Positions 5,752-58,636 of a DNA stretch of 64,000 nucleotides are shown here, piece after piece. The notes below the pieces were generated by a model. That model saw only the letters and a program-made list of their open reading frames with translations, made no database searches and had not been told where the DNA came from. Source of the DNA: Candidatus Dojkabacteria bacterium (GTDB lineage Bacteria; Patescibacteriota; Dojkabacteria; GCA-002793355). The stretch lies in NCBI GenBank assembly GCA_030583825.1, contig CP129477.1, positions 318,308 through 382,307 of the forward strand, given 5' to 3'. Numbering within the stretch: the first letter of the stretch is position 1; each line of letters opens with the position of its first letter. The position numbers were made by a program, and so were the translations under genes.

Positions 5752-6501
5752 TTAGTGCCCTTCAGATAGCGAAAATGCCCACAGCAAGACAACACCGACA
5801 ATAACGAGTGCAACATTTACAAAAAACTGTGGGAGCTTTGTTTTTGAACGAAGCTCCGGCATCAAGTCGCTAAGCGCAATATATAAAAAGCTTCCTGCAG
5901 CAACAGGCAAAAGATACGCTTCAAACAATTCTGACGACGATGCAAAATACCATCCTGCTAATGCTCCTGCAACTGCCGTGAGTGCAGAAAGAAAGTTAAA
6001 TAACAATGCTTTGGAACGCTTAAACCCTGCATGGATAAGTAAACTAAAATCTGCAAACTCCTGAGGAATCTCGTGCGCCGCAAGCGAAATTGACGTCGCA
6101 ACACCAGCAACTGGACTGACGATAAATGCAGACGCAATAATTAATCCATCAATAAAGTTGTGAATTGCATCACCAATAAGTGACAAATATCCCACCGGAG
6201 CATGGTCATGCTTATGATCTTCTTCATCCTGACAGTGATGCCAGTGCAGTAGTTTTTCCAAAACAAAGTAGAAAATGACTGTAATGAGCATAATTGCGGC
6301 AAATTTCTCTGGCTCAAGAAGTTCTACACCTTCAGGAAGTAGGTGAAAAAACGTATTTCCAAGCATCGCACCCGACGCAAACGCAATCATTGGCTTAAGA
6401 AGCTTATGCGTTTGTTTATTACCTAGTGCAAGCAAAAATACTCCGGCAAATGACAGCGCACTAACAGCAAGCGATGCAATAATGATGTAAAGTAATGTCA
6501 T
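5752..6501 (-). CDS. zupT: ZIP family metal (zinc) transporter ZupT-like; start moved to the internal Met (MTLLYIII…) that sits 7 nt downstream of a GGGTATAAT -10 box
   Basis: HNFIDGLIIASAF ZIP signature and His-rich loop HHCQDEEDHKHDH; the longer ORF (to 6678) would overlap the divergent gene at 6622. Confidence 0.8.
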   Translation of the reverse strand: MTLLYIIIASLAVSALSFAGVFLLALGNKQTHKLLKPMIAFASGAMLGNTFFHLLPEGVELLEPEKFAAIMLITVIFYFVLEKLLHWHHCQDEEDHKHDHAPVGYLSLIGDAIHNFIDGLIIASAFIVSPVAGVATSISLAAHEIPQEFADFSLLIHAGFKRSKALLFNFLSALTAVAGALAGWYFASSSELFEAYLLPVAAGSFLYIALSDLMPELRSKTKLPQFFVNVALVIVGVVLLWAFSLSEGH

Positions 6502-6621
6502 CTGAGAATTATACCCCAACATTGTGGATTTTACTATTACCATGAACTTCAGGCTGCACATGGTAAAGTAAGTGCAAAAGCAGTATTTATATCTTATAGT
6601 ATTTGTGCTATAATAGTAATT

Positions 6622-7188
6622 ATGCAGGAAATCGAAGTAAAAATCCTCAACATTGATGTAGAAGCCACCCTTTTGCAACTTCAGCAGCTTGGAGCCACAT
6701 TTGTCGAAGAAAAAAATCTTTCTGCGATTCTCATTGACACTCCCCGACGCGACTTATCAAAAAGAAACGGATCTCTCCGCCTCCGCCAGGAAAATGACAC
6801 CTGTTACTTGACGTTCAAAGCTTTCGGAGGAAAGCAGCAGTTCAAAAACTTGAAAGAAACAGAAATTATTGTTTCAGACTTTCAGCAAACAAAAAATCTT
6901 CTCGCAGCGATCGGCTATTCCAATATTTACCGTTCTTACCAGAAAAAGCGTTTTGAATTTACGCTGGGTAATGCCACAATTTGTATTGATAAGTATATTA
7001 ACGATCTATCGCATATTCCTGTATTTATGGAGATCGAGACACATAGCGAGGCAGACATGGTGACCGCGCTACAAACATTGGGTATTGAGAAATCTCAAGC
7101 AAAACACTACTCACTGAGTGATCTTTTAAGGATGTATAAACCGGTGCCGAAGCCTATAGAGGAAATGGAGCCGTATTCTGATTACTAA
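6622..7188 (+). CDS. CYTH-domain protein (class IV adenylate cyclase / triphosphatase fold)
   Basis: N-terminal EIEVK motif, R-x-R and C-terminal ExE (FMEIE) motifs; leaderless (TATAAT + 7 nt + ATG). Confidence 0.65.
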   Translation: MQEIEVKILNIDVEATLLQLQQLGATFVEEKNLSAILIDTPRRDLSKRNGSLRLRQENDTCYLTFKAFGGKQQFKNLKETEIIVSDFQQTKNLLAAIGYSNIYRSYQKKRFEFTLGNATICIDKYINDLSHIPVFMEIETHSEADMVTALQTLGIEKSQAKHYSLSDLLRMYKPVPKPIEEMEPYSDY

Positions 7189-7195
7189 CGTCATT

Positions 7196-7432
7196 CATCT
7201 TCAAAAAAGGAAGTACTCGGTTGCTTAACGCTCACAAGTTCGCTACAACCTGCGTGCCTTTTCCTCAGATTCATTCCGTTTTAAGTAGTGATTTCTATCC
7301 GCTTTTACTATCAAACGTAGAATTCACCGCCTCATCTTCGCTCCGCGTCAAACGTATAACAGCCTTTTCTTCAGATTCACTCCGTTTTAGTCTGAGACGC
7401 TTATTCACACTCACTCCGTTTTAGGACACCTT
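7196..7432. repeat. intergenic repeat element, copy R1 (roughly 75-nt conserved core plus degenerate CTC(A/G)CTCCGT sub-repeats)
   Basis: 7203-7280 is the near-exact reverse complement of 34990-35065; related copies at 27350, 38300, 49550 and 54975. Confidence 0.8.
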
Positions 7433-8089
7433 TTTATCCTTGGATTGTTTTTCCAGATCGAGACGCAGGGAGTAAATTGCAGGAATAATAATTATTGCAA
7501 ATATTGCGCTGAAGAATATGACGAGGCGCAACATCATCGGCAGAAATATGCTCAAAAATGTGACAATACCCGCAATGACAATAACTTTTCCGCCAAAACG
7601 ATGAGTTTTGTTCCAATTTTCTTCATCTGCAAGTGTCCATGGCAAGCGAATTCCTACAAAGTAATTTTGTGGAAACTTTCCCATCATATTTCCCAAGAAA
7701 ATCAGAAGCAATGACACTCCTGCCGTAATCAAATCGCCCACATTTAGGGCAACTCCAAGAGACGCAGCATATACCACACCGATAACGCCGGAAATCACGA
7801 GAAGAAGGCACAAGCGCAACATTCGGTAACTATCCAAGAACATAGCATAACTCTTTCTTTTTGGGTCGAAAAATGGGATAAAAAGCAGCAAAAAGTACAT
7901 TCCTACAGCAAGGCCGCTGAGCATTAGTACATTCTGTAATCGTGGCATATATCCATCAACTTCGCCGGCAACATTCCAATGACTAGGCATAATTTCGGGG
8001 AATTTGGGATACAACACAACGCTTGCGATAATAACTGCCGCAACAAGTAGTAAATGCGGCCATTCTTTTTTCCAGTCTACTTTGTACAT
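7421..8089 (-). CDS. SdpI/YhfL-like immunity-type membrane protein (DUF1648 N-terminus)
   Basis: N-terminal IMPSHWNVAGEVDGY motif (DUF1648-like), multiple TM helices, downstream of an ArsR-family regulator as in sdpR-sdpI. Confidence 0.6.
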   Translation of the reverse strand: MYKVDWKKEWPHLLLVAAVIIASVVLYPKFPEIMPSHWNVAGEVDGYMPRLQNVLMLSGLAVGMYFLLLFIPFFDPKRKSYAMFLDSYRMLRLCLLLVISGVIGVVYAASLGVALNVGDLITAGVSLLLIFLGNMMGKFPQNYFVGIRLPWTLADEENWNKTHRFGGKVIVIAGIVTFLSIFLPMMLRLVIFFSAIFAIIIIPAIYSLRLDLEKQSKDKKVS

Positions 8090-8135
8090 AGCTCTCTCTG
8101 TAAAAATTTAGCTTGATTGATCATTTTTAGACACT

Positions 8136-8561
8136 CTAACCATCAGTCGTAGGTTCAGGATTATTAATCGTTATTTCCGTAACTTGGACGGTGATAGGAG
8201 CTTGCCCTTCGCGGTCTGAATCGGCTTCAAGACTTGTTTCCATCTCGATACCGCGGAGCTTTTCTACTCGTGCTTCACGATTTCCACTGCTTCCCTTTTT
8301 CCCAAACATATCGAACATAACTTCGGCAACTTCTTCAAAGACACTTTGGTTCAACGAATAAATAATATGCTGCTTATCCCGTTGTGTCCTGACCAATTCC
8401 GCAACCCGCAACGTTTGCAAATGATGGGTTAATGTTGGCTTTGTGATATCAAAATGGATAATCATATCGCCCGGAGTCATATCGTTTTCTTTGAGCATTT
8501 TAAGGATTTTGCGACGAATGGGATCTGAGAGTGCTGTGAATACATCTTTTATTTTTGCCAT
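8136..8561 (-). CDS. ArsR/SmtB-family transcriptional regulator (SdpR-like)
   Basis: winged HTH (DPIRRKILKML…LTHHLQTLRVAELV); a palindromic operator overlaps its promoter. Confidence 0.8.
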   Translation of the reverse strand: MAKIKDVFTALSDPIRRKILKMLKENDMTPGDMIIHFDITKPTLTHHLQTLRVAELVRTQRDKQHIIYSLNQSVFEEVAEVMFDMFGKKGSSGNREARVEKLRGIEMETSLEADSDREGQAPITVQVTEITINNPEPTTDG

Positions 8562-35199: not shown

Positions 35200-36417
35200 T
35201 CATTCAAATCTCAGTGCCTCAATTGGGCTCATCAGGCTTGCCTGGCGGGCAGGATAAATTCCAAATACCAAGCCAATTGCGGCTGAAATTCCTACTGCCA
35301 TACTGACAGATTGCAACGAGATAACTGGTTCTAAATTCGCGACTGCTGCAAAAATATACGTGAGCAGTACACCCAGAATTGTTCCGATTATTCCTCCAAG
35401 CACCGTTACAACAACGGCTTCCGTCAGAAATTGAAGCAAAATATCTCTATTCGTTGCACCTAACGCCTTTCGTAAGCCAATTTCACGAGTTCTTTCCCGA
35501 ACAGTGACAAACATAATGTTCATAATGCCGATACCTCCAACAAGAAGAGAAATACCTCCGATTGCACTTAAGAATAACGTGAAGATTCCCGTAATTTGAT
35601 TAATTGTACTCAGAATTTCACCGGACGTCTGAATAGAAAAATCGGATTCTTCGCCACTTGCAATGCCTCGATGTCTTCGAAGCACAAGTGTTACTTCTCG
35701 CTGTGCATATTCCATATTGTCGGTAGATTTAGAGTTTGCATAGATAATTTGCACCGAATCATCTCCTGTCAAAAGTTTCTGGTATGTTCCTAACGGAACA
35801 TAGATAATTTCATTTGGATCCATAAACGGAACTGCATCTTTAGGCTTTTGTACACCAATAACCGTGAACGGAATACCATTTATTCGAATCTTCTTACCGA
35901 GCGCAAGCTGCACTTCTCCAAAATACTCTTCAGCGACTTTTGGCCCAATTACCGCGATCCTTGCAAGTGACTGACTATCTTCATTTGAAAAATTCCTTCC
36001 ATAGGCAATTTCCATATTTCGCAATGTGAAATAGTCACCATAAATGCCATCTACAGTGTAACGACGTGTTTTATCTTCGTATTGGGTCATAAGACCTTGC
36101 GCATTCATAGCAGCAACTCCGCCATAATACAGTGCATCATGCTCTTCGAGTGCACGAACATCGTCAACAGTAAAAGGCTTATCCAAAACAATTCCAGTAA
36201 TAGAGCTGACATCAATTTTGCCGGGAATAATCGAAATTAAGTCCGACCCAAACGAGTTTACCGAATTGGTAATAGAATTTTGTGCACTTTCACCAACGTT
36301 TAATAGCGTAATAACAGACATAATTCCGATGATAATGCCAAGGATTGTCAGAAATGTGCGCAATTTATTCGTAACAAGCGAGCGCATTGCGGTTGTAAAT
36401 AATTCTTTTATTGACAT
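35200..36417 (-). CDS. ABC transporter permease, MacB/FtsX-like
   Basis: N-terminal TM helix, large extracytoplasmic domain, C-terminal FtsX-type 3-TM bundle. Confidence 0.8.
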   Translation of the reverse strand: MSIKELFTTAMRSLVTNKLRTFLTILGIIIGIMSVITLLNVGESAQNSITNSVNSFGSDLISIIPGKIDVSSITGIVLDKPFTVDDVRALEEHDALYYGGVAAMNAQGLMTQYEDKTRRYTVDGIYGDYFTLRNMEIAYGRNFSNEDSQSLARIAVIGPKVAEEYFGEVQLALGKKIRINGIPFTVIGVQKPKDAVPFMDPNEIIYVPLGTYQKLLTGDDSVQIIYANSKSTDNMEYAQREVTLVLRRHRGIASGEESDFSIQTSGEILSTINQITGIFTLFLSAIGGISLLVGGIGIMNIMFVTVRERTREIGLRKALGATNRDILLQFLTEAVVVTVLGGIIGTILGVLLTYIFAAVANLEPVISLQSVSMAVGISAAIGLVFGIYPARQASLMSPIEALRFE

Positions 36418-36418
36418 A

Positions 36419-37150
36419 TTACTTCTCCTTTTTTTCGGTTGTCATGTTAGTACGGGCCTTCTGCTTTTCATCTGAAACAACCTCTCCATCGCGAAGTTTT
36501 ACGATTCTTTTCGCATATGCAGCAATATCATCTTCGTGAGTGACAAGAATAATAGTATTTCCCTGCTCATTTAGCTTTGCGAGAATAGACATGATTTCAT
36601 GGCTTGTTTTTGAATCGAGGTTTCCGGTTGGCTCGTCTGCAAAGATAATTGCAGGATTCATTACCAAGCTGCGGGCAATCGCCGTACGTTGAATTTGTCC
36701 TCCAGATAATTGATTTGTTTTGTTACTTTTCTTTGACTCAAGACCGACCTTTTCAAGAGCTTTGTTTGCTCGCTCCATTTGTTCGGCACGAGGAATACGC
36801 GAATATGTAAACGGAACAAGCACATTATCGAGCACCGTCATACGTTGAAGCAAGTTAAATGCCTGAAAAACAAAACCAATTTTTTCATTACGGATTTTTG
36901 CAAGGTCTTTGTCGGCGAGTTTGCCGATTTCTTTACTTTCAAGAAAATACTCGCCGGAAGATGGAGAGTCCAAACAACCGAGAATATGCATCAATGTAGA
37001 TTTTCCTGAGCCAGATGGCCCCATGATTGCGAGAAAATCGCCTTTTTCTACCGTGAGTGAAACGCCTTTTAAGGCTTGATATTCAGTTTCACCCATTTTG
37101 TAGGTCTTTCGGATGTCTATAAGTTTGATCAACGGCTCTGCCATGCTCAA
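36419..37150 (-). CDS. ABC transporter ATP-binding protein (MacB/LolD type)
   Basis: Walker A GPSGSGKST, signature LSGGQIQR, Walker B IIFADEPTGNLD. Confidence 0.9.
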   Translation of the reverse strand: MSMAEPLIKLIDIRKTYKMGETEYQALKGVSLTVEKGDFLAIMGPSGSGKSTLMHILGCLDSPSSGEYFLESKEIGKLADKDLAKIRNEKIGFVFQAFNLLQRMTVLDNVLVPFTYSRIPRAEQMERANKALEKVGLESKKSNKTNQLSGGQIQRTAIARSLVMNPAIIFADEPTGNLDSKTSHEIMSILAKLNEQGNTIILVTHEDDIAAYAKRIVKLRDGEVVSDEKQKARTNMTTEKKEK

Positions 37151-38182
37151 TTATTCTTCAAAAGTCAAAACAACTTCATCTCCTTCGTTAAGTCCTGATT
37201 CTACTTCTGCATACGAATTATTGTTTAATCCTACGACAATTTCGCGGTCTTCTGTTTGAGGTTGTCCCTGCGCATTTTTAGAGGTTACTACTTTTACAAA
37301 AGATTTATTCTCTCTTTTTGTAATTGCTGCAGATGGAACAAGAATAACATCTTTTTTACTTGCAACCTCAATGTCGGCATTTAATGACATTCCTGGGCGC
37401 AAGTTTTTGATATCCTCAAAACGAACTTTTGCAAGATACGTTACTACTCCATTCACAAGGTCTCCGGTATTTACAACCGAGTAAATCGAGGCTTTGCGTG
37501 TTTCACGAACAGCATCAATCTCTGCAAGGACGACTTGCCCTTCTGTCACATTCATAATATCTATTTCATTGATTTGCAACGTTGCTTCCAAATCAGTGCT
37601 TGTTTGCATAGAAAATGCCGGCTGAGCTGGACTTGCCATATCTCCTACATTAACATTCACTTTTGTAACTTCTCCCGCAAACGGAGCTTTTATTTTTAAT
37701 GTTTCTGCTGCCTCTCGTGCTGCATCGAGATTACTTTTTGCGCGATTAACCATTCCTTGTGCAGCCGATACTTGCTGAGCTTTTGCTGCTTCTTGCCCTG
37801 GCATTGTAGGAGCATTTCGTATTGCATTTCTTGCACTTGATGCTGCATTAAACGCTGACTCTGCAGCTTTTACTGCATCGGTGATTTGCTTATTTTCAAT
37901 TTCTGCAAGAACTTGTCCGGCATTTACTTCATCACCGGTACCAACATACACTAATGATATTTTCCCACTCGTTTCTGGAGAGACATTTCGTGACTGCTTA
38001 GCAACAACACGGCCGGAAGCTGCGACTGTTAGAGCAATATCTCCTTTTCTGACAGTTTCCGTCAAAGAATTAGCCTGCGGTTGTGCTCCACCACGTGGAG
38101 AAAAGAGGAAAAATAACACAATAATGGCAAGAATGCCGATGATTCCATACAGCACTTTTTTATTCTGGAAAAACTTTTTCAT
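37151..38182 (-). CDS. efflux membrane fusion protein / periplasmic adaptor subunit (HlyD/MacA family)
   Basis: N-terminal TM helix, coiled-coil-rich middle region, beta-barrel C-terminus; adjacent to the ABC pair. Confidence 0.7.
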   Translation of the reverse strand: MKKFFQNKKVLYGIIGILAIIVLFFLFSPRGGAQPQANSLTETVRKGDIALTVAASGRVVAKQSRNVSPETSGKISLVYVGTGDEVNAGQVLAEIENKQITDAVKAAESAFNAASSARNAIRNAPTMPGQEAAKAQQVSAAQGMVNRAKSNLDAAREAAETLKIKAPFAGEVTKVNVNVGDMASPAQPAFSMQTSTDLEATLQINEIDIMNVTEGQVVLAEIDAVRETRKASIYSVVNTGDLVNGVVTYLAKVRFEDIKNLRPGMSLNADIEVASKKDVILVPSAAITKRENKSFVKVVTSKNAQGQPQTEDREIVVGLNNNSYAEVESGLNEGDEVVLTFEE

Positions 38183-38299
38183 AATTTTTGTAATACACTA
38201 TAGTGAAATATTAGAACACATGTATTATACCACTTTTAGCCTTACTTTTCTACTATGAATCACCTCCTTATCGTAAGTTTTGAGCATATAGTACGATTG

Positions 38300-38487: not shown

Positions 38488-40416
38488 TTATTTTTCATCC
38501 CATACCCACACTCCGTTAAACTCCTTCATGTTGCGGATATGCTTAATTCTTTCAATCATGACAGAAGATGGGCCGTCGTCTTCAAGCTGAGCAAATAGCT
38601 CCAACGCAGTTTCAAAGTCTTTCTGCTGATACGCCAAAAGTGCTTTCACGTATGTTGAGGAAAGCTCTAAATTTTCGTGAGAATATCTGAGTGGCTCAAA
38701 TATCGCAACAGGATTCTCTTTTCCTTTAACTTGCACAATGTCAAGCTGGCGAAAGACGATTTTTCCATCTAAATCTGTTCCTAATCCTTTTACAGTCTGC
38801 TCAGAAACAATAATTGCTGACTTATACTTTTTCGTCAGCCCTTCAAGTCTTGAGGCAAGGTTTACTTCGTCTCCCAGCACTGTATAGGTAAAACGACGCT
38901 TACTGCCGACATTTCCTACAACCATATCTCCCGTGTTTATTCCGATTCCCATAGATAATCCGCGCCCCTTCTTCATGCTGCGGTTCATTACTTTGAGTGC
39001 TTCGGTCATATCAAGCGCTGTCAGCACTGCGTGCAATGCATGTTTAGAATCGTTCACAGGAGCATTCCAAAACGCCATAATCGCGTCACCGATATATTTA
39101 TCAATTGTTCCACCGTGCATTAAAACAACCTCTGACATGCCATCAAGATACGTGTTAAGCAACTCGACAAGCTCTTCAGGTTCCATTTTCTCAGAAAGCT
39201 GAGTAAATCCACGGATATCACTGAATAGAACGGTCATATTTCGACGATCTCCTCCAAGCTTAAGCAATGCCGGCTCTTCAATAATTTTATTCAAAATATG
39301 AGGATTCACATACTTAGCAAAGCTATCGGAAATAACGCGATTCTTACGCTGCACTTCCAAGTATCTGACAACTGTTGTGACAATATATTGGGTAATAAGC
39401 AGGAGAATAATCGAAATGACAGGTACAATTACTCCAAATTCATATAAGACAATACTAATAATAAATGCCGCTATCAACGAAGAAATCAATGTAGCAACAG
39501 CCACAATAGTCCTCTGGTTTTTATAGATTAACGAAAGTACAAAGCCCGCTACTGCGACGGCAAGGGTTACTATCCAATATGGAACATACGAAAAGGACAC
39601 ATTTTGTAACAATGTATTCACTGCCTGAGCATGAATAAACACACCGGGAATTTTATTTCCAAATATATCTATGAACGTATCCGACAAATTTGATGCAATA
39701 TCACTTGTTGTTGCGCCAATAAGCACAACTTTATTTTTAAATGTTCCAGGCTCAACGACATTATTAAGCACATCCGCAGCGCTAATAACCTGAAACGGTG
39801 CTCTCGAGTAAGAAACACCAAATTCACGTGATGGAGTCACAGCATCTGCTTGAGCTGCCGCACATTCGCGCGCAGACGGATTTCTATATAACGTGTACAG
39901 TGCCTTTGAAAATGACTCTACACATCCGCTTGCCGACGTAAATTTGCTATAAATTGTCCTGACTTTGCCGTCTACATCAGTTGAAACATTCACAACTCCA
40001 GGAACAATATTGTTCCCCGAAAATTTTGACAAATATAAAGCATCATCCTGAACTTTTGTGCTTACAACAATGGGAACTCCGGCATTAAGCAATGCTGCCG
40101 AGAGAGTCTCATCTCCAGAACGGGAATCAATAAATAAAATGTCTATACCGATGACACGAGGATCATCCTGCGCAATGCGGGAAACAAGCGAAGCAGTTGT
40201 TTCTCTTGGCCAAGGCCAAGGATGTCCACCCTGCAATGTGGCATCATCTATGCCAATAATAACGATTTCGCCACGAACCGGTGTTTCTCCTTGTAACAAA
40301 TCGGTAAAAAACGTATTAACTTTGTGCAAAAATGGCACACTGAGTAAAATCGCGACAAAAATTGTCGAAATTATGACAATGAACCCTATGTAATATTTCT
40401 GTAAGACTTTTGTCAT
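38488..40416 (-). CDS. CHASE2 sensor-domain adenylate/guanylate cyclase (class III)
   Basis: class III cyclase core VLFSDIRGFTQLSE…KYIGDAIMAFWNAP; N-terminal TM helix and periplasmic sensor domain, then 3-4 TM helices. Confidence 0.85.
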   Translation of the reverse strand: MTKVLQKYYIGFIVIISTIFVAILLSVPFLHKVNTFFTDLLQGETPVRGEIVIIGIDDATLQGGHPWPWPRETTASLVSRIAQDDPRVIGIDILFIDSRSGDETLSAALLNAGVPIVVSTKVQDDALYLSKFSGNNIVPGVVNVSTDVDGKVRTIYSKFTSASGCVESFSKALYTLYRNPSARECAAAQADAVTPSREFGVSYSRAPFQVISAADVLNNVVEPGTFKNKVVLIGATTSDIASNLSDTFIDIFGNKIPGVFIHAQAVNTLLQNVSFSYVPYWIVTLAVAVAGFVLSLIYKNQRTIVAVATLISSLIAAFIISIVLYEFGVIVPVISIILLLITQYIVTTVVRYLEVQRKNRVISDSFAKYVNPHILNKIIEEPALLKLGGDRRNMTVLFSDIRGFTQLSEKMEPEELVELLNTYLDGMSEVVLMHGGTIDKYIGDAIMAFWNAPVNDSKHALHAVLTALDMTEALKVMNRSMKKGRGLSMGIGINTGDMVVGNVGSKRRFTYTVLGDEVNLASRLEGLTKKYKSAIIVSEQTVKGLGTDLDGKIVFRQLDIVQVKGKENPVAIFEPLRYSHENLELSSTYVKALLAYQQKDFETALELFAQLEDDGPSSVMIERIKHIRNMKEFNGVWVWDEK

Positions 40417-40420
40417 AGTT

Positions 40421-41461
40421 CTACCTTGAGTTAATTCCTCTTACTGCCTGTGTTACTGTCGGCGTAGGAGTTACTGTTCCTGATCCATTCGGCACTTTTC
40501 CTAATGAATTCAGAATTCCTTTGAGTGATTCTGCTTCCTGTTCCGTAAGCGTACCATCACGGCAAATTACTTCCAAAGCTGCTCTAAATTCTTGAATTGT
40601 TGCAAGATCCTTTTGCGTGACACCTCGAGCCTTCATTTGTGCAATTCTTTGGTCAAAGTAGTCTGCTGTCGGCTGAAATGGCGTACATGATTTATCAGAT
40701 ATTGTAATATCAATTGGCACATCGCCAGTGATTTTTATCTGAAATTCCACCTTTTTTTGAATTGCCTGCACTTTTACTGATTTAATTTTCTGCTTTATTT
40801 GCTCACGATCTAATGTTTCAAAATTGGAATCCAACTGTTTGTTATACAAGAACCATTCATGTTTTTTAAGCTCTTCGGGGATATCCTGAATATCAAACCC
40901 TTGCTTCTCGCCAAACTCATTCACAGACGTGAGTTGCCCTTCCAAGAGCACTTTTACTTCCATAAGCTGACCACTTTCATTTTTCTGCTGAACATCTACG
41001 CTATGTTCAACGACATAAATGTCGGTAATATTTGTTACTTCAATGCCCAGTACTGTTCCACGGACAGTTGCGAGCGCAGTCGGAGTATTCACTTTATACG
41101 CTCCCGAGCCGATATTTCTGACTCTATTCCACGTTTTACCAATGAATTGCATGACATCAATGCCTTCAGCGGTGTAAGTGACTTGGATTTCAGTATTTTT
41201 GTCTAATGTCATCAATGAATTATTAGGAAACAACACATGCCCTTTTCCGGAACCGGTTTTTACAAATGTGCCACTTTTAACTGTTGTTTCATCACTTGTT
41301 ACTTCGACATATTCGGCATCTTGGGCAGATTTTACATACATAGTTCCATCTTCACGAAGTACAAGAATATCTTCTGCTTTGCGATTAGCAACAACAAGAA
41401 GCATCACAAGACCAATACCACATACAACGAGTAGAAACACAGGAAAAATAATCTTATTCAT
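40421..41461 (-). CDS. FecR-domain membrane protein (partner of the CHASE2 cyclase)
   Basis: FecR-like block YKVNTPTALATVRGTVLGIEV; N-terminal TM helix. Confidence 0.55.
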   Translation of the reverse strand: MNKIIFPVFLLVVCGIGLVMLLVVANRKAEDILVLREDGTMYVKSAQDAEYVEVTSDETTVKSGTFVKTGSGKGHVLFPNNSLMTLDKNTEIQVTYTAEGIDVMQFIGKTWNRVRNIGSGAYKVNTPTALATVRGTVLGIEVTNITDIYVVEHSVDVQQKNESGQLMEVKVLLEGQLTSVNEFGEKQGFDIQDIPEELKKHEWFLYNKQLDSNFETLDREQIKQKIKSVKVQAIQKKVEFQIKITGDVPIDITISDKSCTPFQPTADYFDQRIAQMKARGVTQKDLATIQEFRAALEVICRDGTLTEQEAESLKGILNSLGKVPNGSGTVTPTPTVTQAVRGINSR

Positions 41462-41474
41462 GCGTTATAGTAGC

Positions 41475-42569
41475 TTAAAACGTTAATTTACTCAAAAATT
41501 CTTCGATGATAGCTCGGGATAAGCCAGAAGCTTCTTCCATTGGCAAATGTCCGACATCGGGAATAACGTAGATTTCCGATTGAGGAACTTTTTCAGCAAA
41601 GGCAATCCCACGCTCAACGGGAATAATATAATCTTCTTTACCCCAAATGATAATTGTAGGAGTTTCAGACGTCGCGAGTGGTTCAGTAGAAACAACCGAC
41701 GACGATGTATCGCGAGCGATAGCGAGCGTTCCAATATCCCAATCTCGCACCTTTTGAGAAAGCATTGAGCGAGTAACTAGTTCATCTGTAACAATTTCAT
41801 CTTTATATACCGCGTTTTTAAGCCGTTCACGAACATTATCAGAAGTATATGCACGTTGCAGATACTGCCTTTTAATACGATATGTGTACATATTCGTTCC
41901 TTTTATAGCGCTTTTTGTAGAAGTGTGCGATGAAAAAGATTCATCTCCCGATAAAAATACGTATCCTGCGGCCAATTCACCATACTGATGTGAATACTCC
42001 AGTATAACCGGCGTGCTTGTTCCATGAGCAATAAATGCCGCAGAGTTTACTTGCTTCTCTTTCAAAACCTCTGAAACAAGCGTTGCTTGCCCTTTATATG
42101 AATGATCAAATGCCCAATCTCGCTGAGAAAATCCACTTCCTTTAAGGTCAATTGCAATTGTTCTGTATCCGCTTTCTGCAAAGACTTCCATGTGCGGACG
42201 CCATATTTCGGCACTTAACTCAAATTCAGAAATAAATACTAATACTTTTTCTGACTCCGGATTAAGATCTATCACATACGTTATATACCCATCTATCGTT
42301 AGAAACTCGCCTCTTTTCTCTAAAGTAGATGCTACTTCCTGTGGCGAAGATAAGCTTCTTTCCATTGGCAAAGGCATGAGAAATGGGAACGATATGATCA
42401 CTAACAATATGAAAATCACAATAACAACAATAATTCCAAGCGTACTTTTCCTTCTCAGTGGAGGGATATTCTTCTCCGACACCTTCGACACAATACTATC
42501 TTTCGCGGAAGTATCAAGTATCTGTTTTGATTTATCTTTCTCTTTATCGCTCATTTTCAGCCAATCCAC
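41475..42569 (-). CDS. membrane-anchored alpha/beta-hydrolase-fold protein
   Basis: N-terminal TM helix; hydrolase-like core with a non-canonical nucleophile elbow HGTSTP. Confidence 0.45.
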   Translation of the reverse strand: MDWLKMSDKEKDKSKQILDTSAKDSIVSKVSEKNIPPLRRKSTLGIIVVIVIFILLVIISFPFLMPLPMERSLSSPQEVASTLEKRGEFLTIDGYITYVIDLNPESEKVLVFISEFELSAEIWRPHMEVFAESGYRTIAIDLKGSGFSQRDWAFDHSYKGQATLVSEVLKEKQVNSAAFIAHGTSTPVILEYSHQYGELAAGYVFLSGDESFSSHTSTKSAIKGTNMYTYRIKRQYLQRAYTSDNVRERLKNAVYKDEIVTDELVTRSMLSQKVRDWDIGTLAIARDTSSSVVSTEPLATSETPTIIIWGKEDYIIPVERGIAFAEKVPQSEIYVIPDVGHLPMEEASGLSRAIIEEFLSKLTF

Positions 42570-42888
42570 TCATAATATGCACATGTTCATGCTCAAGATG
42601 GTTATACCCTGCACCGTTAATTACCAACTTATACCCCTGAGTATCGAGCTTTCGAAGTTGAATCACTTCAGTAACTGCGGACATAATATCACCCCAAAAT
42701 GGCTGTGTTTTTACTGTCATAACATCATCCTTTTCGATATGTAACTTTGGCATAACAAGAACATGAATTGGTGCTTCTGGATATTTATTTTGAATCGCAA
42801 TAAACGAACTATTCTCCCATACTTTCGTACTTTCGAGTTCTCCTGCAATAATTTTACAAAATATACAGTCTTGAGAATGCGTTGCCAT
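42544..42888 (-). CDS. HIT (histidine triad) family protein; start set at MATHSQDC
   Basis: histidine triad HEHVHIM and N-terminal IFCKII. Confidence 0.8.
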   Translation of the reverse strand: MATHSQDCIFCKIIAGELESTKVWENSSFIAIQNKYPEAPIHVLVMPKLHIEKDDVMTVKTQPFWGDIMSAVTEVIQLRKLDTQGYKLVINGAGYNHLEHEHVHIMSGLAENER

Positions 42889-42908
42889 AAAATGTTCTGA
42901 AAAATTAG

Positions 42909-45068
42909 TTACTTTACGACGACAGCTTTTCTTCCCAAATATGCCCATTTTGCATTAAATTCTCCTGCCGTATATGTTTCTTTCGAAAACCATGGATCTT
43001 TTACAAGAATATGTGTTGGATTTGATTCAGGGCCTTTATACCCGTATACCGTTACAGAGTGCATTCCAGGCCGTGCTCCATGCGCCGAATACCAACTATT
43101 CATTGTTTGATTGCTTACTCCGTTATACCAAAAGATAATAACCGGATTTCCGTTGCGAATCTCAGATGCAATTTGCGAAAGAGACATACCGCTTCGCGCT
43201 TCTGCACCACGCCAGTTACGAATCCCTCGCGCTAAAGGCTCCCAATGAGTTCCATAGTACTGAATCCAGTGCGTATTTGGATTTCCGCCGCTCGGGCCGC
43301 TACTGTTATAGTCTTCGCCACGCCCAATCGCATTAATTAATTGATCGTTTGAAATATGCACACCACGATACGCAAGCGCCATTCTTGCGGCAACAACATT
43401 ACACACAAATGTTCCCGCTCCCTGTGTGTATCGAGGAATTGACAGAGTCACAGTTTCCGGCTGCGTTGTAAATGAATAAGTAAAAGTCTCGCGAGAGTTT
43501 GTACCTTCGATACTTTTTACATCCGGATTGATCGTCACTTTATATTGCGTGTTATATGCCAGATTGCCTTTTGGATCTATGACTAATGTATTGCCATCCC
43601 AACCGTAGGCAGCGTTTACACCTGGAGAGATTGCTACTTTGCTTTGTGCATCTCCATGATCTACCGGTTGGTCAAAGTCAATTCTCATAGAAGAAGTCAC
43701 AGAAACACTTTTTGCACCATTCCACGGAGAGAATCCGGTAACCTTTACCGCACCGATTGTTTCAAATTTATGAATAATATCTGTGTACGTAATGCCGCCT
43801 TTCTTGGTGCGAATTCCGGACTTTAGTATGACTGAATACCATGTTTCTTTAAGATATTCCTCATCGGGGGTAAATGTCATTTTTGTATCCGATTCCCACA
43901 TAATTGTCCCATTTACAGCAGGTTCTACTGTAAATAACTGCTCGACTGTTTCGCGCTCTACAGGCTCTGTAAAGTTCATAACGATCGGAGTTTTAACACG
44001 TACAGCATTTCCTTGCGGCGCGACTGATTCAAGGCCAGGTGGAGTTACGGTTTTAAATCGAAGAGTTCCAAGCAATTCAGGATCTTCCGCATTGAGTACT
44101 TCTTTACTTTCAAGTTCTACAAGTTGCGCAACTTTAAATACTTTAATGACATAGTCTGTCCCTTGCTGCAATGGCTGTTTATATCGGATTTGCATCTGTT
44201 TTTCGCTGTCACGCACAATTTCGTACTCAACCTGCGGAGTAATCTCTGCAACAAGCGTCATCGCATCGGTAATAGGGTTATCAAACTCGATTTCTAACGG
44301 TGCATGAGGGAGAACATCACCTTGTAAGTCTGCAATAGATGTCGAAATGACTTTTGGGTTGTCAGGAGTATGTACTTCGTAAGAATGCTCATGTTGTCCA
44401 CCATTTCCTGTGGTACTTTGAAGTCCTGACATATAAAACACTACTTTCTGTTCATATGCGATGCTTCGCTTGGGTTCAATTTCAATCCCAATATACAGAG
44501 GAATTTCGATATTTACTCCGGTCACACTTTCTAAAAACTTTGAGAAGTCTTCATATACAGGGCGGTAATCAACATCTACGGTCAAATCATCCGGCATAAT
44601 TTTTAGGTTCAATGTTTCCTGGTTAAACGGACGATCAAAGAGTACTGATAATGGTACATGTGGATCGGCATACAATGCACCATGGTTCGGTACAGTATGA
44701 ATAATATACGGACGTGCAAAGAAGTATTTGGACACAAATACCCCTACAAAAATATATCCTCCAATGACGATGAATAGTGACGCAAATCGAGGCATCAGCT
44801 TAAAAACAAGCGGTGTTGTTAGCTTTGGAAATGTAATTTTGGGAAGAGAAAGTCGTGCATTCGTTTTTTCTCCTTTCTCTTTCTTCTCTTTTGGAGCTTC
44901 TTCTTTCTTTTTTTCCTTTTCTTTGTCTTTACTCTGAGCTGTCGCGAGTTTTTTATACAGCTTTTTGGCAAGTGGAACAAAGAAATCAAGCGCATACTTA
45001 AACACAACAATTGTTGCAATTCCCCCAGCTATCGAAGCAATCAGTAAATCTCGTTCGAAGTCAGTCAT
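42909..45068 (-). CDS. membrane-anchored surface protein with bacterial Ig-like domains and a C-terminal C39-like (papain-fold) peptidase domain
   Basis: 2 TM helices, a Lys/Glu-rich linker, the Ig-like block VTGFSPWNGAKSVSVTSSMRIDFDQPV, and the C-terminal block FVCNVVAARMALAYRG…HSVTVYGY…ILVKDPW. Confidence 0.5.
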   Translation of the reverse strand: MTDFERDLLIASIAGGIATIVVFKYALDFFVPLAKKLYKKLATAQSKDKEKEKKKEEAPKEKKEKGEKTNARLSLPKITFPKLTTPLVFKLMPRFASLFIVIGGYIFVGVFVSKYFFARPYIIHTVPNHGALYADPHVPLSVLFDRPFNQETLNLKIMPDDLTVDVDYRPVYEDFSKFLESVTGVNIEIPLYIGIEIEPKRSIAYEQKVVFYMSGLQSTTGNGGQHEHSYEVHTPDNPKVISTSIADLQGDVLPHAPLEIEFDNPITDAMTLVAEITPQVEYEIVRDSEKQMQIRYKQPLQQGTDYVIKVFKVAQLVELESKEVLNAEDPELLGTLRFKTVTPPGLESVAPQGNAVRVKTPIVMNFTEPVERETVEQLFTVEPAVNGTIMWESDTKMTFTPDEEYLKETWYSVILKSGIRTKKGGITYTDIIHKFETIGAVKVTGFSPWNGAKSVSVTSSMRIDFDQPVDHGDAQSKVAISPGVNAAYGWDGNTLVIDPKGNLAYNTQYKVTINPDVKSIEGTNSRETFTYSFTTQPETVTLSIPRYTQGAGTFVCNVVAARMALAYRGVHISNDQLINAIGRGEDYNSSGPSGGNPNTHWIQYYGTHWEPLARGIRNWRGAEARSGMSLSQIASEIRNGNPVIIFWYNGVSNQTMNSWYSAHGARPGMHSVTVYGYKGPESNPTHILVKDPWFSKETYTAGEFNAKWAYLGRKAVVVK

Positions 45069-47902
45069 TATTTGGCGTAATTCATATAATATTCTTTCAG
45101 CGTGGTGTAGATTAGCGGCCCTCCATCATTATACCCTGAAAAGTATCGAGTATACCAAAGAACAGTATCTATTTTGGGGCCTTCTGTATTAAAGAAGTCC
45201 GGATGTGAGAGGAAAACAACAACTTTTGGCGCACCAAGTGCATCACCATTATGAATGTCTTTAAAACGTTGAATCATATGCTGTGTGCTGTGTGCCCATG
45301 AATCTGCTCCATTATTCGGCATCTCGTACAAGCCGATGCTTGCAGCTTTGTTTGTACTTCGATTCTGATTCGACGGAGAAATCCAGTACGGCTGCTGCGT
45401 TGTACTCAGTTCCCACGGGCCTGTTACTCCTGGCCCACTACCAAATGAGCGGGATGTATATCTATTTCGTCCGGAAGTATCAATTAATAATCCTTCATCT
45501 TTTGCTGCACGAAGATTATCAAGGTTTGCAAACCATCCTCCCGCACGAAATGACACAGGTGCCGGTAATCCGATTTTCTTAAACTCAGCAATTGCCCATT
45601 TGAACATTTTTCGGGAATCTTCGTAACCATACCTTGTAAGCGGCACATCATAGCCATCGGCGCGGTTGCTCCAACCGGCTTCTTCGTTAACCGTAACACC
45701 AGCAAGAGAAAGCATATCTCGAAACATATGAAGGTGTAATGCAACTTCATCGCCAAATTGATCTGCGCGATCTTTCACAAACTTTGCTTGTGCTTGTCCA
45801 TTTGACCTTGCAACTTGTGACGAATTCCACGAGCGAGGGTTTAACATGTGAGTAATTTTCATATGAGGATTACTGCTACGTATTTGATCCAATGTTTCCA
45901 TTGTTTTTGTTGTGACAGCAAATCCATCCCAATCAAGCGACCATACTAAGTAATACGGATGTGTAACAAAAAACGTATGCTTTATTGCATATTCTTTATT
46001 CTCTTCATCTGTTGCAAGCACCAACCGATAGGAAACTTCCTGTTTGCCTGGCTTATCTTTAAATCCATCGGCAGAAAACGGTAATTCTGCATACGAGTAG
46101 GCTCTTCCCTCTACGACAGGAATATTTTGCACAGAAGAAAGATCTTTACATTCGGGCTTTTGAACCTTATTCTGCAAATCGTAGTATTCCACACGAAACT
46201 GTTTTGCTTCTAATAATCGTTGTTCTGCACACGAAAACGGAAGAAATGCCTTAACTGTGCCATCCTTTTCTTTATCTGTTGAGAGAATAACCCATTTACG
46301 GCCTTCAATGGAGTATCCACGATGCATCCACTCACCAAACTCTTTATTTATTTTTGTCAGTAACGCGCCGGACGCGCTTCCTGGATTTGAAATTTGCTGC
46401 TCCAATGTTCCTCTGTCAGGAAGTGCAACATTCTCATTAAAAGATACAGCAATCGCGGTTGTATTATCAGGCAGAGAAAACGATACAAAATATTCTGCTC
46501 CTTTTGTCAACGACACTTTATGATCCATTTTTATAAACGGCTGTTGTGCCTGAGACACATATACCGTAACATCCTGGCCAGCAAGATTTGTCCCTATTTC
46601 ATCCGGACGAACCTCAACATGGTAATCCCCCTTTTGGTAAGGAGTCTCCTGCGACATGACCGCAACTTTGCTTCCTGCAAATGGCCATTCCTGCTGATTT
46701 ACAAACGTACTATCAATATTTGAAAGAATTTTCTCATCCTGCTTAAGAATTCCGTTCATCTCGGCCAAGACAACTTTGAACATATTTCCTGTCGAAAAAG
46801 AAATACCTGCGAATGGCTCAATCATGTACAAAATTAGCAAGTGGACAACAACAAATTGCAGCGAATTTTTCCCAAGAAAACCCAACGCACGAGGAATAAA
46901 TTTTTGCATATGAACTTCGCTTTGCATTGCAACAATCAACAACAAAATGGCAACTGTCAGGCTTGAAAAGATGAAAAACAGCGTTGGAGGCCAACGAATC
47001 GCGTCCAAATTAAGGGTCATCAGCGAAATATTTTCAAACGGAATCGAAACAAACATAATTGCGGCAGAAAGTAGCGTAAAAATAAGCGATTCACGCATAA
47101 ATTCTTTCGGAGATTCTTCACGCTTTGACCAGCCGAGCCATGCACCAACCCCGAACACAATACCGTACGAAACAATCGGAAAAGTATGAAGCGACTGCGA
47201 CCCAATAAGCAATGATAGCGCCAAGTCCTGCGTAAATCCCGCAGCGAATTTTCCAATAAGCACACCGGCTATTCCCAAAATAATGACATAAAAGGCGCCA
47301 GTTTGATGCTTAAGAATATTCTTCACAAAAGTCAGTTTATTCAAAATCCATACAGCGATATACCCAAGTATTGGGAAAAATGCCAATGTCAGTAAGTATT
47401 CCTGTAGGTAAATCGGCGTTTTTAGCAAAGAGCGAAATTCTTGCTCACGCGGAACCAAGTACACAATTGCCAATATGAGATACACAATAAGAATAATCAC
47501 TGAACGCTTTACAATAGATGCAAAATTCAACGTTTTATAGCGTAAACCAATCAAGAAGCCACTCACCATCAAAAAGATTGTGAAACTAATAAATCCTCCA
47601 AAATACGAAAGACTCTTACCTACAGGATTGTCTGACATCCAGAAAAGGACGATCCATACGTGAGTAATAAGCATTGTTACAACTGCAAATCCACGCAAAA
47701 CATCAAGTCCAGGGAGCTTTGGTGTTGGCCTTGGAGCTTCAATAAACTCATCCTGCGGAGCTTCGATCATGCCTGCACCGCGAACAATTCTAGGTTCAAG
47801 TACTTCAGGTTTCCCGCCTTTTAGTCGCCGACTTTCGGTAGACCCCGAAACGTCTTCGATTACGCGAACTTTCTTCGATTGTGCTTTCTTTACTTTTGCC
47901 AT
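45068..47902 (-). CDS. acyltransferase-3 family (OafA/YrhL-like) membrane protein with a large C-terminal extracytoplasmic domain (possible NodB/CE4-like deacetylase motifs); leaderless start at MAKVKK
   Basis: conserved acyltransferase-3 motif LDVLRGFAVVTMLITHVW plus about 10 TM helices; C-terminal SLDWDGF and HLHMF motifs; TATAAT + 7 nt + ATG. Confidence 0.6.
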   Translation of the reverse strand: MAKVKKAQSKKVRVIEDVSGSTESRRLKGGKPEVLEPRIVRGAGMIEAPQDEFIEAPRPTPKLPGLDVLRGFAVVTMLITHVWIVLFWMSDNPVGKSLSYFGGFISFTIFLMVSGFLIGLRYKTLNFASIVKRSVIILIVYLILAIVYLVPREQEFRSLLKTPIYLQEYLLTLAFFPILGYIAVWILNKLTFVKNILKHQTGAFYVIILGIAGVLIGKFAAGFTQDLALSLLIGSQSLHTFPIVSYGIVFGVGAWLGWSKREESPKEFMRESLIFTLLSAAIMFVSIPFENISLMTLNLDAIRWPPTLFFIFSSLTVAILLLIVAMQSEVHMQKFIPRALGFLGKNSLQFVVVHLLILYMIEPFAGISFSTGNMFKVVLAEMNGILKQDEKILSNIDSTFVNQQEWPFAGSKVAVMSQETPYQKGDYHVEVRPDEIGTNLAGQDVTVYVSQAQQPFIKMDHKVSLTKGAEYFVSFSLPDNTTAIAVSFNENVALPDRGTLEQQISNPGSASGALLTKINKEFGEWMHRGYSIEGRKWVILSTDKEKDGTVKAFLPFSCAEQRLLEAKQFRVEYYDLQNKVQKPECKDLSSVQNIPVVEGRAYSYAELPFSADGFKDKPGKQEVSYRLVLATDEENKEYAIKHTFFVTHPYYLVWSLDWDGFAVTTKTMETLDQIRSSNPHMKITHMLNPRSWNSSQVARSNGQAQAKFVKDRADQFGDEVALHLHMFRDMLSLAGVTVNEEAGWSNRADGYDVPLTRYGYEDSRKMFKWAIAEFKKIGLPAPVSFRAGGWFANLDNLRAAKDEGLLIDTSGRNRYTSRSFGSGPGVTGPWELSTTQQPYWISPSNQNRSTNKAASIGLYEMPNNGADSWAHSTQHMIQRFKDIHNGDALGAPKVVVFLSHPDFFNTEGPKIDTVLWYTRYFSGYNDGGPLIYTTLKEYYMNYAK

Positions 47903-47927
47903 ACAGACTATTATACTGTTTTTAAAT

Positions 47928-48485
47928 ATGGCCTTAAACAAGGGATCCATTAATCTGCTTACTGCCTCGATTCAACCTCAGGGACGGTGGGACAGGATTT
48001 ATCAATGGACAGTCAATACTGCAAAATATATCATTATTGTCACAGAACTCATAGTCCTGTTCGCTATTGGTGTCCGTTTTACCCTCGATGGGCGAATTAA
48101 CGACCTCGACAAAGAGATCGAAGCACAAAAATCTATTCTCGATAGCCGAAAAGAAGAAGACTTTGCTGTACGCCAGCTTGCACAGACAATAGAAAACATC
48201 GCTCGAATGGAAAAAACCGACTATACCCTAACAACCTATTACAAACAGATTATTGATCTTATCCCTCAGGATGTAGAAATTACCACAATTACTGTAGATA
48301 TCGCATTGGTCAGTATTAACGGACGTGTAGATTCCTACGATAAACTGCAACAGTTGGAAAGTCGTATCCGTAGTGCAGACTTTATTCTTGACGAATCATT
48401 TTCGACAAACCAGCAATCCGGAGGAAACGTTGTTTTCTCCACAACATTTAAATTAGCCTTCAGAGACGATGGCGGTAGTCAGTAG
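47928..48485 (+). CDS. PilN-like bitopic protein (N-terminal INLL motif, TM helix, coiled coil)
   Basis: MALNKGSINLLTAS… resembles the PilN INLLP PilM-binding motif; TM helix followed by a coiled coil. Confidence 0.45.
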   Translation: MALNKGSINLLTASIQPQGRWDRIYQWTVNTAKYIIIVTELIVLFAIGVRFTLDGRINDLDKEIEAQKSILDSRKEEDFAVRQLAQTIENIARMEKTDYTLTTYYKQIIDLIPQDVEITTITVDIALVSINGRVDSYDKLQQLESRIRSADFILDESFSTNQQSGGNVVFSTTFKLAFRDDGGSQ

Positions 48486-57925: not shown

Positions 57926-58636
57926 ATGCTTTTGTCTCGAGAAACAGTTAAAAACCTCATTATCTCCGCGGAAAATCTCTTATATTCGAGAGTTATTGCT
58001 TCCCCAAAAGATGCATCCTACGGAAAAGAGCTTCAATTGCCTGTTATTGACCAGCTAGCGTCGCCTGCACCAGGAACATTTCCAGAGCATTACGGAAAAA
58101 TTTCAGACGAGGCAGCAGCAAAACGCTTTGGAACACAATCACTTGACGACTACTCTTTTTGGGCATGGCGTGCATGCGGAATTGCCCTTATCTCGACAAT
58201 AATTTCATCCACCGGCAAAACTCCAGACACGCTCTTTGCTATCTCTAAACGATTAGATAAAGAAAACGGATACATTCACTCCCACAAACAAGGAAATGAC
58301 CTTGGATGGAAGTATTCAGCTCTCGCGACATATCTTACAGAACGAGGTATTCAGACCAAAATATCGGGACTTCTCAGCGTTAATAGGCTCCTTACATACT
58401 TACAGCAGGATAAATGGGTGATTGCGTCGGTAAAAAGCAGAATCTCGGCAGGAACACATCTTGTGCTCGTAACAAACTACCAACAAGATAAAGGCAGTAT
58501 ATTTATCACTTATCATGACCCTTTTTACGATAGATCGGGAGGAAAACAGCTTGTGTATCTCTCAGAATTTCAAGAAATATTTAACAGCCGGGGAATTATC
58601 GTAAGTCCAGAACTAAAACCTACACCTCGAAAATGA
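57926..58636 (+). CDS. C39-like (papain-fold, Peptidase_C39_2-like) domain protein
   Basis: [20 protein letters not shown] (Cys block) and [10 protein letters not shown]…ITYHDP (His block) resemble the C-terminus of 42909..45068. Confidence 0.4.

Follow-up and report, generated by a model that had tools for sequence, protein, structure and literature searches.

The stretch of DNA analyzed here (the window) comprises 64,000 nucleotides (nt) of contig CP129477.1 from a Candidatus Dojkabacteria bacterium (GenBank assembly GCA_030583825.1, forward-strand positions 318,308 to 382,307; all coordinates below count from the first letter of the window unless a locus is named), and our subject is a cluster of six same-strand genes, G1–G6, that runs along its minus strand from 47902 down to 38488. 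In transcriptional order these are G1 (45068..47902, 944 residues, lying within an open reading frame [ORF] of 960 residues that extends to 47950), G2 (42909..45068, 719 residues), the HIT gene G3 (42544..42888, 114 residues), G4 (41475..42554, or from a GTG at 42569; 359 residues), G5 (40421..41461, 346 residues), and G6 (38488..40416, 642 residues). Nucleotide 45068 is common to the G1 stop and the G2 start, 20 nt separate G2 from G3, G3 and G4 overlap by 11 nt (26 nt with the GTG start), and gaps of 13 and 4 nt precede G5 and G6, respectively. An initial annotation, made from the letters of the window, had counted seven genes with overlaps or gaps of at most 12 nt; six ORFs are present, as many as its own list names, and the spacing limit is exceeded at the G2/G3 and G4/G5 junctions and holds at the others. 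Its ORF coordinates and junction positions are borne out by the minus-strand ORFs, and each of its domain families (acyltransferase-3, Ig/C39-like, HIT, alpha/beta hydrolase, FecR, and CHASE2 cyclase) is matched in Pfam, where all families found in G1–G6 score above the curated cut-offs. The G1 product is 100% identical to the NCBI hypothetical protein QY314_01895 from a Candidatus Dojkabacteria metagenome-assembled genome (MAG), and its start agrees with the gene calls of public assemblies. Public gene callers begin G3 at 42948, which gives a longer protein; orthologues of 112 residues support the shorter start at 42888.

G1 combines an acyltransferase-3 (AT3) domain (approximately residues 64–368), a beta-rich middle region (approximately 400–630), and a CE4/NodB-like C-terminal domain (approximately 635–944). 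The Pfam family Acyl_transf_3 (PF01757) matches residues 80–384 of the 960-residue ORF with 48.2 bits against a cut-off of 31, and the AT3 motif R-X10-H is present as R70-GFAVVTMLIT-H81, with the Arg and the His invariant in five orthologues; the corresponding R/K-X10-H motif is essential in OafA (PMC7448272). Hydropathy analysis reveals nine clear hydrophobic segments, and the basic residues fall in alternate loops, a charge distribution consistent with a predicted N-in/C-out topology. The middle region, ∼230 residues between the two domains, is lineage specific, and its two Cys residues C558 and C585 are invariant among orthologues, which fits an external location for this part of the protein.

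The C-terminal domain (45074..45973, minus strand) escapes sequence-based classification: it has no Pfam match even at E ≤ 10 and no NCBIfam match, a phmmer search against PDB sequences found nothing, and a profile of the region gives 3RXZ as its best PDB match at E = 0.32, in a weak alignment that places the G1 sequence FRAGGW on the YRAP motif of 3RXZ. An exhaustive HMMER search with the last ∼310 residues of G1 over 1.84 billion cluster representatives identified relatives in 456 of these, 209 of them at E < 1e-30, and the relatives form two groups. Many are proteins of 800–1000 residues with an N-terminal AT3 domain (Pfam detects AT3 in all six of the long ones tested, and a narrow custom-built hidden Markov model [HMM] detects it in 54 of 153 representatives of the C-terminal domain family); others are stand-alone proteins of 440–600 residues with a signal anchor in the candidate phyla radiation (CPR) or a lipoprotein-type signal in Chloroflexota. 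Because the stand-alone homologues bear such signal anchors or lipoprotein signals, the domain is predicted to lie outside the membrane in G1 as well. Some homologues are annotated as "DUF2334 domain-containing" or "predicted deacetylase", some carry weak precomputed matches to PF10096/PF01522, and homologue matches to PF10096 reach ∼19–21 bits, below the cut-off of 26.

Structure prediction assigns the domain to a fold. An AlphaFold2 (AF2) model built from an alignment of 124 sequences (predicted local distance difference test [pLDDT] 94.7, predicted template modeling score [pTM] 0.91) has a distorted (beta/alpha) barrel, and a Foldseek search of the PDB with this model ranks CE4/NodB enzymes first, with E values from 1e-8 to 2e-7. 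The top match is HP0310, the PgdA of H. pylori (E = 1.6e-8), followed by M. smegmatis 3RXZ, ArnD, an insect chitin deacetylase, and PuuE; the Foldseek probability is 1.00 to 3QBU, 3RXZ, 8T0J, and 5ZNS, and the best structural matches have template modeling scores of about 0.54/0.60 at a sequence identity of about 10–12%. Seven residues (D657, H723, H725, D752, R786, W830, and H900) are invariant in 124 of 124 sequences at ∼30% identity, and the invariant residues sit at or just past the C-terminal ends of the predicted strands, as in CE4 active sites. We therefore describe the domain as a distant, DUF2334-type member of the CE4/NodB fold; the label "NodB-like" given to it in the initial annotation holds at the level of the fold and fails at the level of sequence profiles, where the domain belongs to neither PF01522 nor PF10096. 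Glycosidases of the GH57/GH38 type appear only lower in the list of structural matches, and this assignment was rejected because CE4 enzymes rank first and because the invariant Asp/His/His/Arg/His set fits CE4. No SGNH-family Pfam match is found in G1, even at E ≤ 10.

G2, which follows G1 directly, carries two hydrophobic segments at its N terminus, then three Big_5 Ig-like domains, and at its C terminus a Peptidase_C39_2 domain (PF13529; residues 542–693, 51.7 bits against a cut-off of 24). The catalytic residues Q549, C556, H670, and D691 of this domain show no substitution in eight orthologues with identities as low as 29%. In a comparison of the G2 orthologue profile with the PDB, 3ERV (a "putative C39-like peptidase" from structural genomics) is matched at E = 9e-18, and the Ig-like part of the profile finds the stalk domains of M. 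tuberculosis LdtMt2 (E ∼ 3e-5). Among the endolysins of phages that infect Gram-positive bacteria, Peptidase_C39_2 is a cataloged catalytic domain (PMC8223927). Classical bacteriocin-processing C39 peptidases are N-terminal parts of ABC exporters and cleave double-glycine leaders, a description that does not suit G2, whose peptidase domain sits at the C terminus behind Ig-like repeats with no ABC transporter fused to it. Between the two hydrophobic segments lies a highly charged, Lys/Glu-rich low-complexity loop (residues ∼27–90) that varies in length and is absent from distant orthologues in the alignment. The initial annotation had pointed to a second C39-like protein elsewhere in the window, the stand-alone 236-residue product of 57926..58636 (plus strand). 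This protein reaches only 22.9 bits for Peptidase_C39_2 (cut-off 24; E = 1.4e-4), and BLAST finds no similarity between it and the corresponding part of G2; on both counts a paralogous relationship to the G2 peptidase was rejected. It does have plausible Cys/His/Asp residues and its own TATAAT box with a leaderless-type spacing of 8 nt.

Comparison of neighborhoods separates the first two genes of the cluster from the other four. A relative at 73% identity (loci L007/L008) shares all six genes in the same order, with MacAB next, and this is the only type of locus with the full order. In a relative at 46% (L009), G1, G2, and HIT are followed directly by MacAB, with no hydrolase, FecR, or cyclase gene, and in a relative at 40% only G1 and G2 remain, followed by unrelated genes. 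The pair is present in every locus of a G1 homologue that was looked up, including four distant AT3-CE4-like fusions (36–40% identity over the C-terminal domain), each of which directly precedes a gene for a Big_5 plus Peptidase_C39_2 protein of 659–722 residues; in three of these four (L012, L013, and L015) the next gene after the pair encodes a PMT_2 (GT-C) glycosyltransferase. A five-sequence G2 alignment, run against the GTDB species representatives, returned 46 loci, and these, together with the earlier loci, gave 36 non-redundant Big+C39 genes that were analyzed with custom-built HMMs. An AT3-CE4-like gene lies directly upstream on the same strand in 15 of the 36, which is 15 of the 24 that can be assessed, since the other 12 are cut by a contig end. 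Pair-bearing loci span Dojkabacteria, Saccharibacteria-labeled, and other Patescibacteria MAGs, and the PMT_2-like ORFs form one six-locus BLAST cluster. Judged by these neighborhoods, the G1–G2 pair is a widely conserved putative cassette of Patescibacteria, often accompanied by PMT_2.

One further type of locus has AT3-like and CE4-like sequences as separate genes before Big_5-C39. At this split locus (L065/L066, locus coordinates 5893..8344), a stand-alone, membrane-anchored CE4-like gene (P0155) overlaps the Big_5-C39 gene by 1 nt. The AT3-like gene before it is spread over two reading frames (ORFs 5893–6360 and 6107–6958), with the same break in L065 and L066, which may reflect pseudogene formation by frameshift, a misassembly, or a form of the fusion that is encoded in separate parts. 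Across the wider set, a PMT_2 gene is found downstream of Big_5-C39 in L012, L013, L015, L016, L017, L022, and L029, and is absent from the window. In the 12 contig-end loci (L025, L031, L033–L039, L041, L043, and L048), mostly from Saccharibacteria-labeled MAGs including Nanosynbacter, the Big_5-C39 gene starts at or within ∼900 nt of the contig end, which hints at a hard-to-assemble element upstream of it. Five loci (L020, L021, L023, L025, and L030) come from MAGs labeled "uncultured Gammaproteobacteria bacterium" and carry a CPR-type Big_5-C39 gene with ∼30% identity to G2; these taxonomic labels look doubtful.

The start of the cluster bears a leaderless-type promoter. As the initial annotation had noticed, a TATAAT −10 box (47910..47915, minus strand) ends exactly 7 nt 5′ of the G1 ATG at 47902, and a TATAAT box also stands 5–7 nt before the ATG of the orthologous genes in L007, L010, and L014. 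This arrangement is frequent in the window: 13 of its 49 TATAAT hexamers lie 5–8 nt upstream of an ATG that opens an ORF of 100 residues or more, and only six are found at other spacings within 0–40 nt before such ATGs. Examples are the ATGs at 6501(−), 6622(+), 12689(−), 15115(+), 22650(−), 27026(+), 31889(+), 34030(−), 50762(+), 55043(+), 57926(+), and 59393(−). The pattern points to leaderless mRNAs as the usual form for first genes in this Dojkabacterium. The leaderless-type start of G1 looks real and, with 13 of the 49 boxes placed in this way, is the genome's norm, not a feature special to the cluster.

Within the cluster, the TATAAT signature at 7 nt is found only on G1, and no clear Shine-Dalgarno sequences were found before G2–G6. 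Promoter-like sites inside the cluster number 27, compared with 31.8 ± 5.3 in shuffled sequence (i.e., no excess), and terminator-like sites number 13, compared with 9.4 ± 3.2. Because G2–G6 lack a TATAAT signature of their own and internal sites are not in excess, co-transcription of G1–G6 from the G1 promoter is a plausible prediction. A PilN-like gene diverges from G1, with its ATG at 47928 (plus strand) 25 nt from the G1 start; a TATACT box (47912–47917, plus strand) precedes this ATG by 10 nt and overlaps the G1 TATAAT box on the opposite strand. The 25-nt spacing (47903..47927) is repeated in L007, and the divergent genes that correspond to the PilN-like gene in L007 and L009 have no Pfam match. 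At the other end of the cluster, a gap of 305 nt follows G6 and contains a promoter-like site on the minus strand, TAGAAA-17-TATAAT with a TG before the −10 hexamer (extended −10; 38224..38252), which probably marks the start of a separate unit, that of the MacA/MacB-type ABC transporter (35200..38182, minus strand). Across the whole window, no sequence attains the gathering score of any Rfam family, and the gap is thus not explained by a riboswitch or small RNA.

The four remaining genes are diverse. G3 matches HIT in Pfam (44.3 bits) and also DcpS_C, and its histidine triad is intact (H100-E-H-V-H-I-M106); the HinT-like models of NCBIfam score well below their cut-offs, and any finer subfamily label is provisional. 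G4 is membrane anchored and matches Abhydrolase_1 above threshold, with a nucleophile elbow that reads FIAHGTSTP (AHGTS) where its orthologue in L007 (L007:15196-16212) has FIGHSMGV (GHSMG), Gly replacing Ser, and an oxyanion motif that reads VFISEFE (SE) in place of VFVHGFG (HG). The two orthologues are 44% identical, compared with 63–78% for the neighboring genes. Because the nucleophile Ser and the HG motif of the orthologue are lost, G4 is probably a non-catalytic alpha/beta-fold protein, either a pseudoenzyme or a gene under relaxed constraint. G5 is a signal-anchored FecR-domain protein (31.9 bits), and G6 fuses a CHASE2 sensor (144 bits) to a class III cyclase (Guanylate_cyc, 107 bits). 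The G6 motifs FSD400IRGFT, DK440YIGD444, and LGD516EVN519LASR523 contain what we take to be all six class III cyclase residues, namely D400 and D444 (metal), K440 and D516 (substrate), and N519 and R523 (transition state), and the Lys/Asp pair, which is typical of adenylate cyclases, makes G6 a predicted adenylate cyclase. G6 homologues number in the thousands, many of them from Patescibacteria.

The initial annotation had inferred an envelope-sensing cyclic nucleotide module transcriptionally coupled to surface modification enzymes, and had called the pairing of HIT and cyclase notable. Spelled out as one functional system, this would have the cyclase sense the envelope and tie cyclic AMP (cAMP) to the AT3 and C39 enzymes, with the HIT protein acting on a nucleotide by-product. 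The genes do lie close together on the same strand downstream of a single leaderless-type promoter, and the order recurs in the 73% relative. Beyond that relative the order of genes 3–6 is not conserved, in the very comparison that the initial annotation had proposed as a test: of the 16 non-redundant loci that carry the pair, two have HIT nearby, and only one has the hydrolase, FecR, and cyclase genes. The proposed coupling of cyclic nucleotide sensing to surface enzymes finds no support in these counts, and the supposed link between HIT and the cyclase fares no better, given that L009 retains HIT without a cyclase. The known substrates of Hint-type HIT enzymes, moreover, are nucleoside phosphoramidates or acyl-adenylates, and these enzymes are not known to use cAMP. 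The association of CHASE2 cyclases with FecR, which the same annotation had cited as established, is confirmed: three distant CHASE2 cyclases (36–42% identity; L062–L064), from WWE3, another Dojkabacterium, and another Patescibacterium, each come directly after a FecR gene in surroundings that otherwise differ, and a FecR gene next to a CHASE2 sensor is known from the Burkholderia BiofilmReg operon (PMC5192318). In one Dojkabacteria MAG (GCA_014729085.1), the G1–G2 pair (L016) and the FecR-cyclase pair (L063) are on different contigs. By these comparisons G5 and G6 are a putatively independent, self-contained two-gene module, the six-gene cluster is a chance juxtaposition of separate modules, and the full operon is a shallow, lineage-specific arrangement. 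A single six-gene system is quite improbable, and the comparative data appear to have largely refuted it already.

We consider it reasonably probable that the cluster consists of independent units lying side by side, probably behind one leaderless-type promoter, and that G1 and G2 form an envelope modification cassette. By analogy with OatA and OafA, the AT3 domain of G1 would take an acyl group from cytoplasmic acyl-CoA and pass it across the membrane, and the external CE4/NodB-like domain would act as a metal-dependent de-acylase on the same wall glycan, preparing or editing the acceptor. G2 would be a cysteine peptidase tethered to the membrane on an Ig-like stalk and would act on the peptide part of the same polymer or on a surface protein. 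The analysis shows the domain identities, the fold, the invariant residues, the adjacency counts, and the promoter pattern; the substrates, the direction of the chemistry, and co-transcription are what we infer, peptidoglycan or a wall-linked glycopolymer being the likeliest substrate. G5 and G6 would convert an extracytoplasmic signal into cAMP, and G3 (a Hint-type HIT protein) and G4 (a degenerate alpha/beta-fold protein) would be lineage-specific passengers. Within the same proposal, and as an unlikely but specific variant, the CE4-like domain might strip an N-acetyl group outside the cell, AT3 might re-acylate the freed amine from acyl-CoA, and the C39 peptidase might trim the peptide, which would amount to an exchange of acyl groups on a wall glycan and a membrane-coupled analogue of NodB/NodA chemistry; some relatives also match the HGSNAT N-acetyltransferase family.

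Several observations weigh against the cassette as we picture it. Nine assessable Big_5-C39 loci lack an AT3-CE4 partner, indicating that G2-family proteins can work alone; the nine hydrophobic segments of G1 compare with the 10+1 transmembrane segments expected of fused AT3 proteins; and the AF2 model of full-length G1 (five sequences, pLDDT 53) is too poor for conclusions on topology or domain packing. The His motif of the CE4-like domain is H-x-H in place of the canonical CE4 H-x-x-x-H, and the domain could be non-hydrolytic given this spacing. A role as acyl-transfer relay is not known for CE4 enzymes, and the logic of the fusion is not obvious. The frequent PMT_2 neighbor, finally, points to a glycoprotein or lipid-linked glycan rather than to peptidoglycan.

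Two of these points can be developed into different readings of the pair. If the PMT_2 neighbor is taken as a guide, G1 and G2 would serve the maturation of a surface protein or lipid-linked glycan, with PMT_2 adding the sugar, G1 editing acyl groups, and G2 processing a glycoprotein such as a pilin or S-layer protein. The direct PMT_2 neighbors in L012, L013, and L015 and the six-locus cluster of PMT_2-like ORFs speak for this possibility, as do the PilN-like gene that diverges from G1 and the presence among the top structural matches of ArnD, a CE4 enzyme that works upstream of the GT-C enzyme ArnT and has a lipid-linked sugar as its substrate; AT3 enzymes are also reported to acetylate pilin glycans, PglI being an example (PMC9558356). 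The window and about half of the pair-bearing loci, however, have no PMT_2 gene, the synteny with pilus genes is confined to close relatives, Peptidase_C39_2 elsewhere is known as an endolysin domain (PMC8223927), and the Ig-like stalk of G2 resembles that of a peptidoglycan transpeptidase. On balance we regard this reading as rather unlikely. The H-x-H spacing, together with the missing Pfam match, would also suit a CE4-like domain that is a non-catalytic, glycan-binding pseudoenzyme and positions AT3 on its substrate; CE4 pseudoenzymes exist, and BA3943 is among the structural matches. This is difficult to reconcile with the strict conservation of D657, H723, H725, R786, and H900 in 124 sequences of ∼30% identity and with their placement at or just past the C-terminal strand ends, as in CE4 active sites, and we consider a pseudoenzyme very unlikely.

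AT3 proteins are the main bacterial route by which acyl groups are carried across the membrane onto peptidoglycan, O-antigen, and other surface glycans, and reviews of the family list as open questions how the acyl group is delivered to the acceptor and why some AT3 domains need a fused partner. A CE4-like fusion would be a third bacterial AT3 fusion class and would provide a new test case, with a conserved cysteine-peptidase neighbor. Members of the family occur mainly in Patescibacteria, a group with poorly understood envelopes and host-attachment surfaces, and Big_5-C39 proteins reach relatives of the oral Saccharibacteria. The cyclic nucleotide part carries little weight in this respect, because it is a common, independent sensor module. 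Reported AT3 architectures are AT3-only, AT3-SGNH, and AT3-alanine/serine racemase, to which later papers add NRF, HGSNAT, CASD1, and GWT1/PIGW forms; these published accounts (PMC9558356, PMC9833829, and PMC12423673) contain no deacetylase/CE4 fusion and no conserved C39-like partner. Literature on DUF2334, on acyltransferases with deacetylases in Patescibacteria, and on leaderless Patescibacteria yielded nothing relevant. As far as these accounts show, the AT3-CE4-like plus Big_5-C39 pair is undescribed, and the AT3 fusions reported in them differ from it.

Compared with known systems, the sensor module is closest to the Burkholderia BiofilmReg operon (PMC5192318), where a FecR-domain gene likewise stands immediately upstream of a CHASE2-containing transducer; the output domain of G6 is a class III adenylate cyclase and not a histidine kinase, and G5 lacks LysM. 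G2 is laid out like LdtMt2, a membrane-anchored peptidoglycan enzyme in which a stalk of Ig-like domains also leads to a catalytic domain with an active-site Cys, but the catalytic domain of G2 has no relation to the YkuD fold of Ldt enzymes and is instead a papain-like Cys/His/Asp domain like that of the Peptidase_C39_2 protein 3ERV. The C-terminal domain of G1 resembles CE4/NodB enzymes in an Asp, two His, an Arg, and a C-terminal His that may correspond to CE4 motifs 1, 2, 3, and 5, and departs from PgdA (HP0310), 3RXZ, and ArnD in its H-x-H motif, in its ∼10–12% identity to them, and in being fused or adjacent to AT3. Like the AT3-SGNH proteins OatA, OafA, OafB, and PglI, G1 joins an N-terminal AT3 domain with the R/K-X10-H motif to a C-terminal domain, which in G1 is predicted to be extracytoplasmic and to act as an enzyme on surface carbohydrate; unlike them, it ends in a CE4/NodB-like barrel in place of SGNH and inserts a beta-rich region of ∼230 residues between the two domains, and the G1 family has downstream of it a conserved Big_5-C39 partner gene to which nothing in the OatA/OafA systems corresponds.

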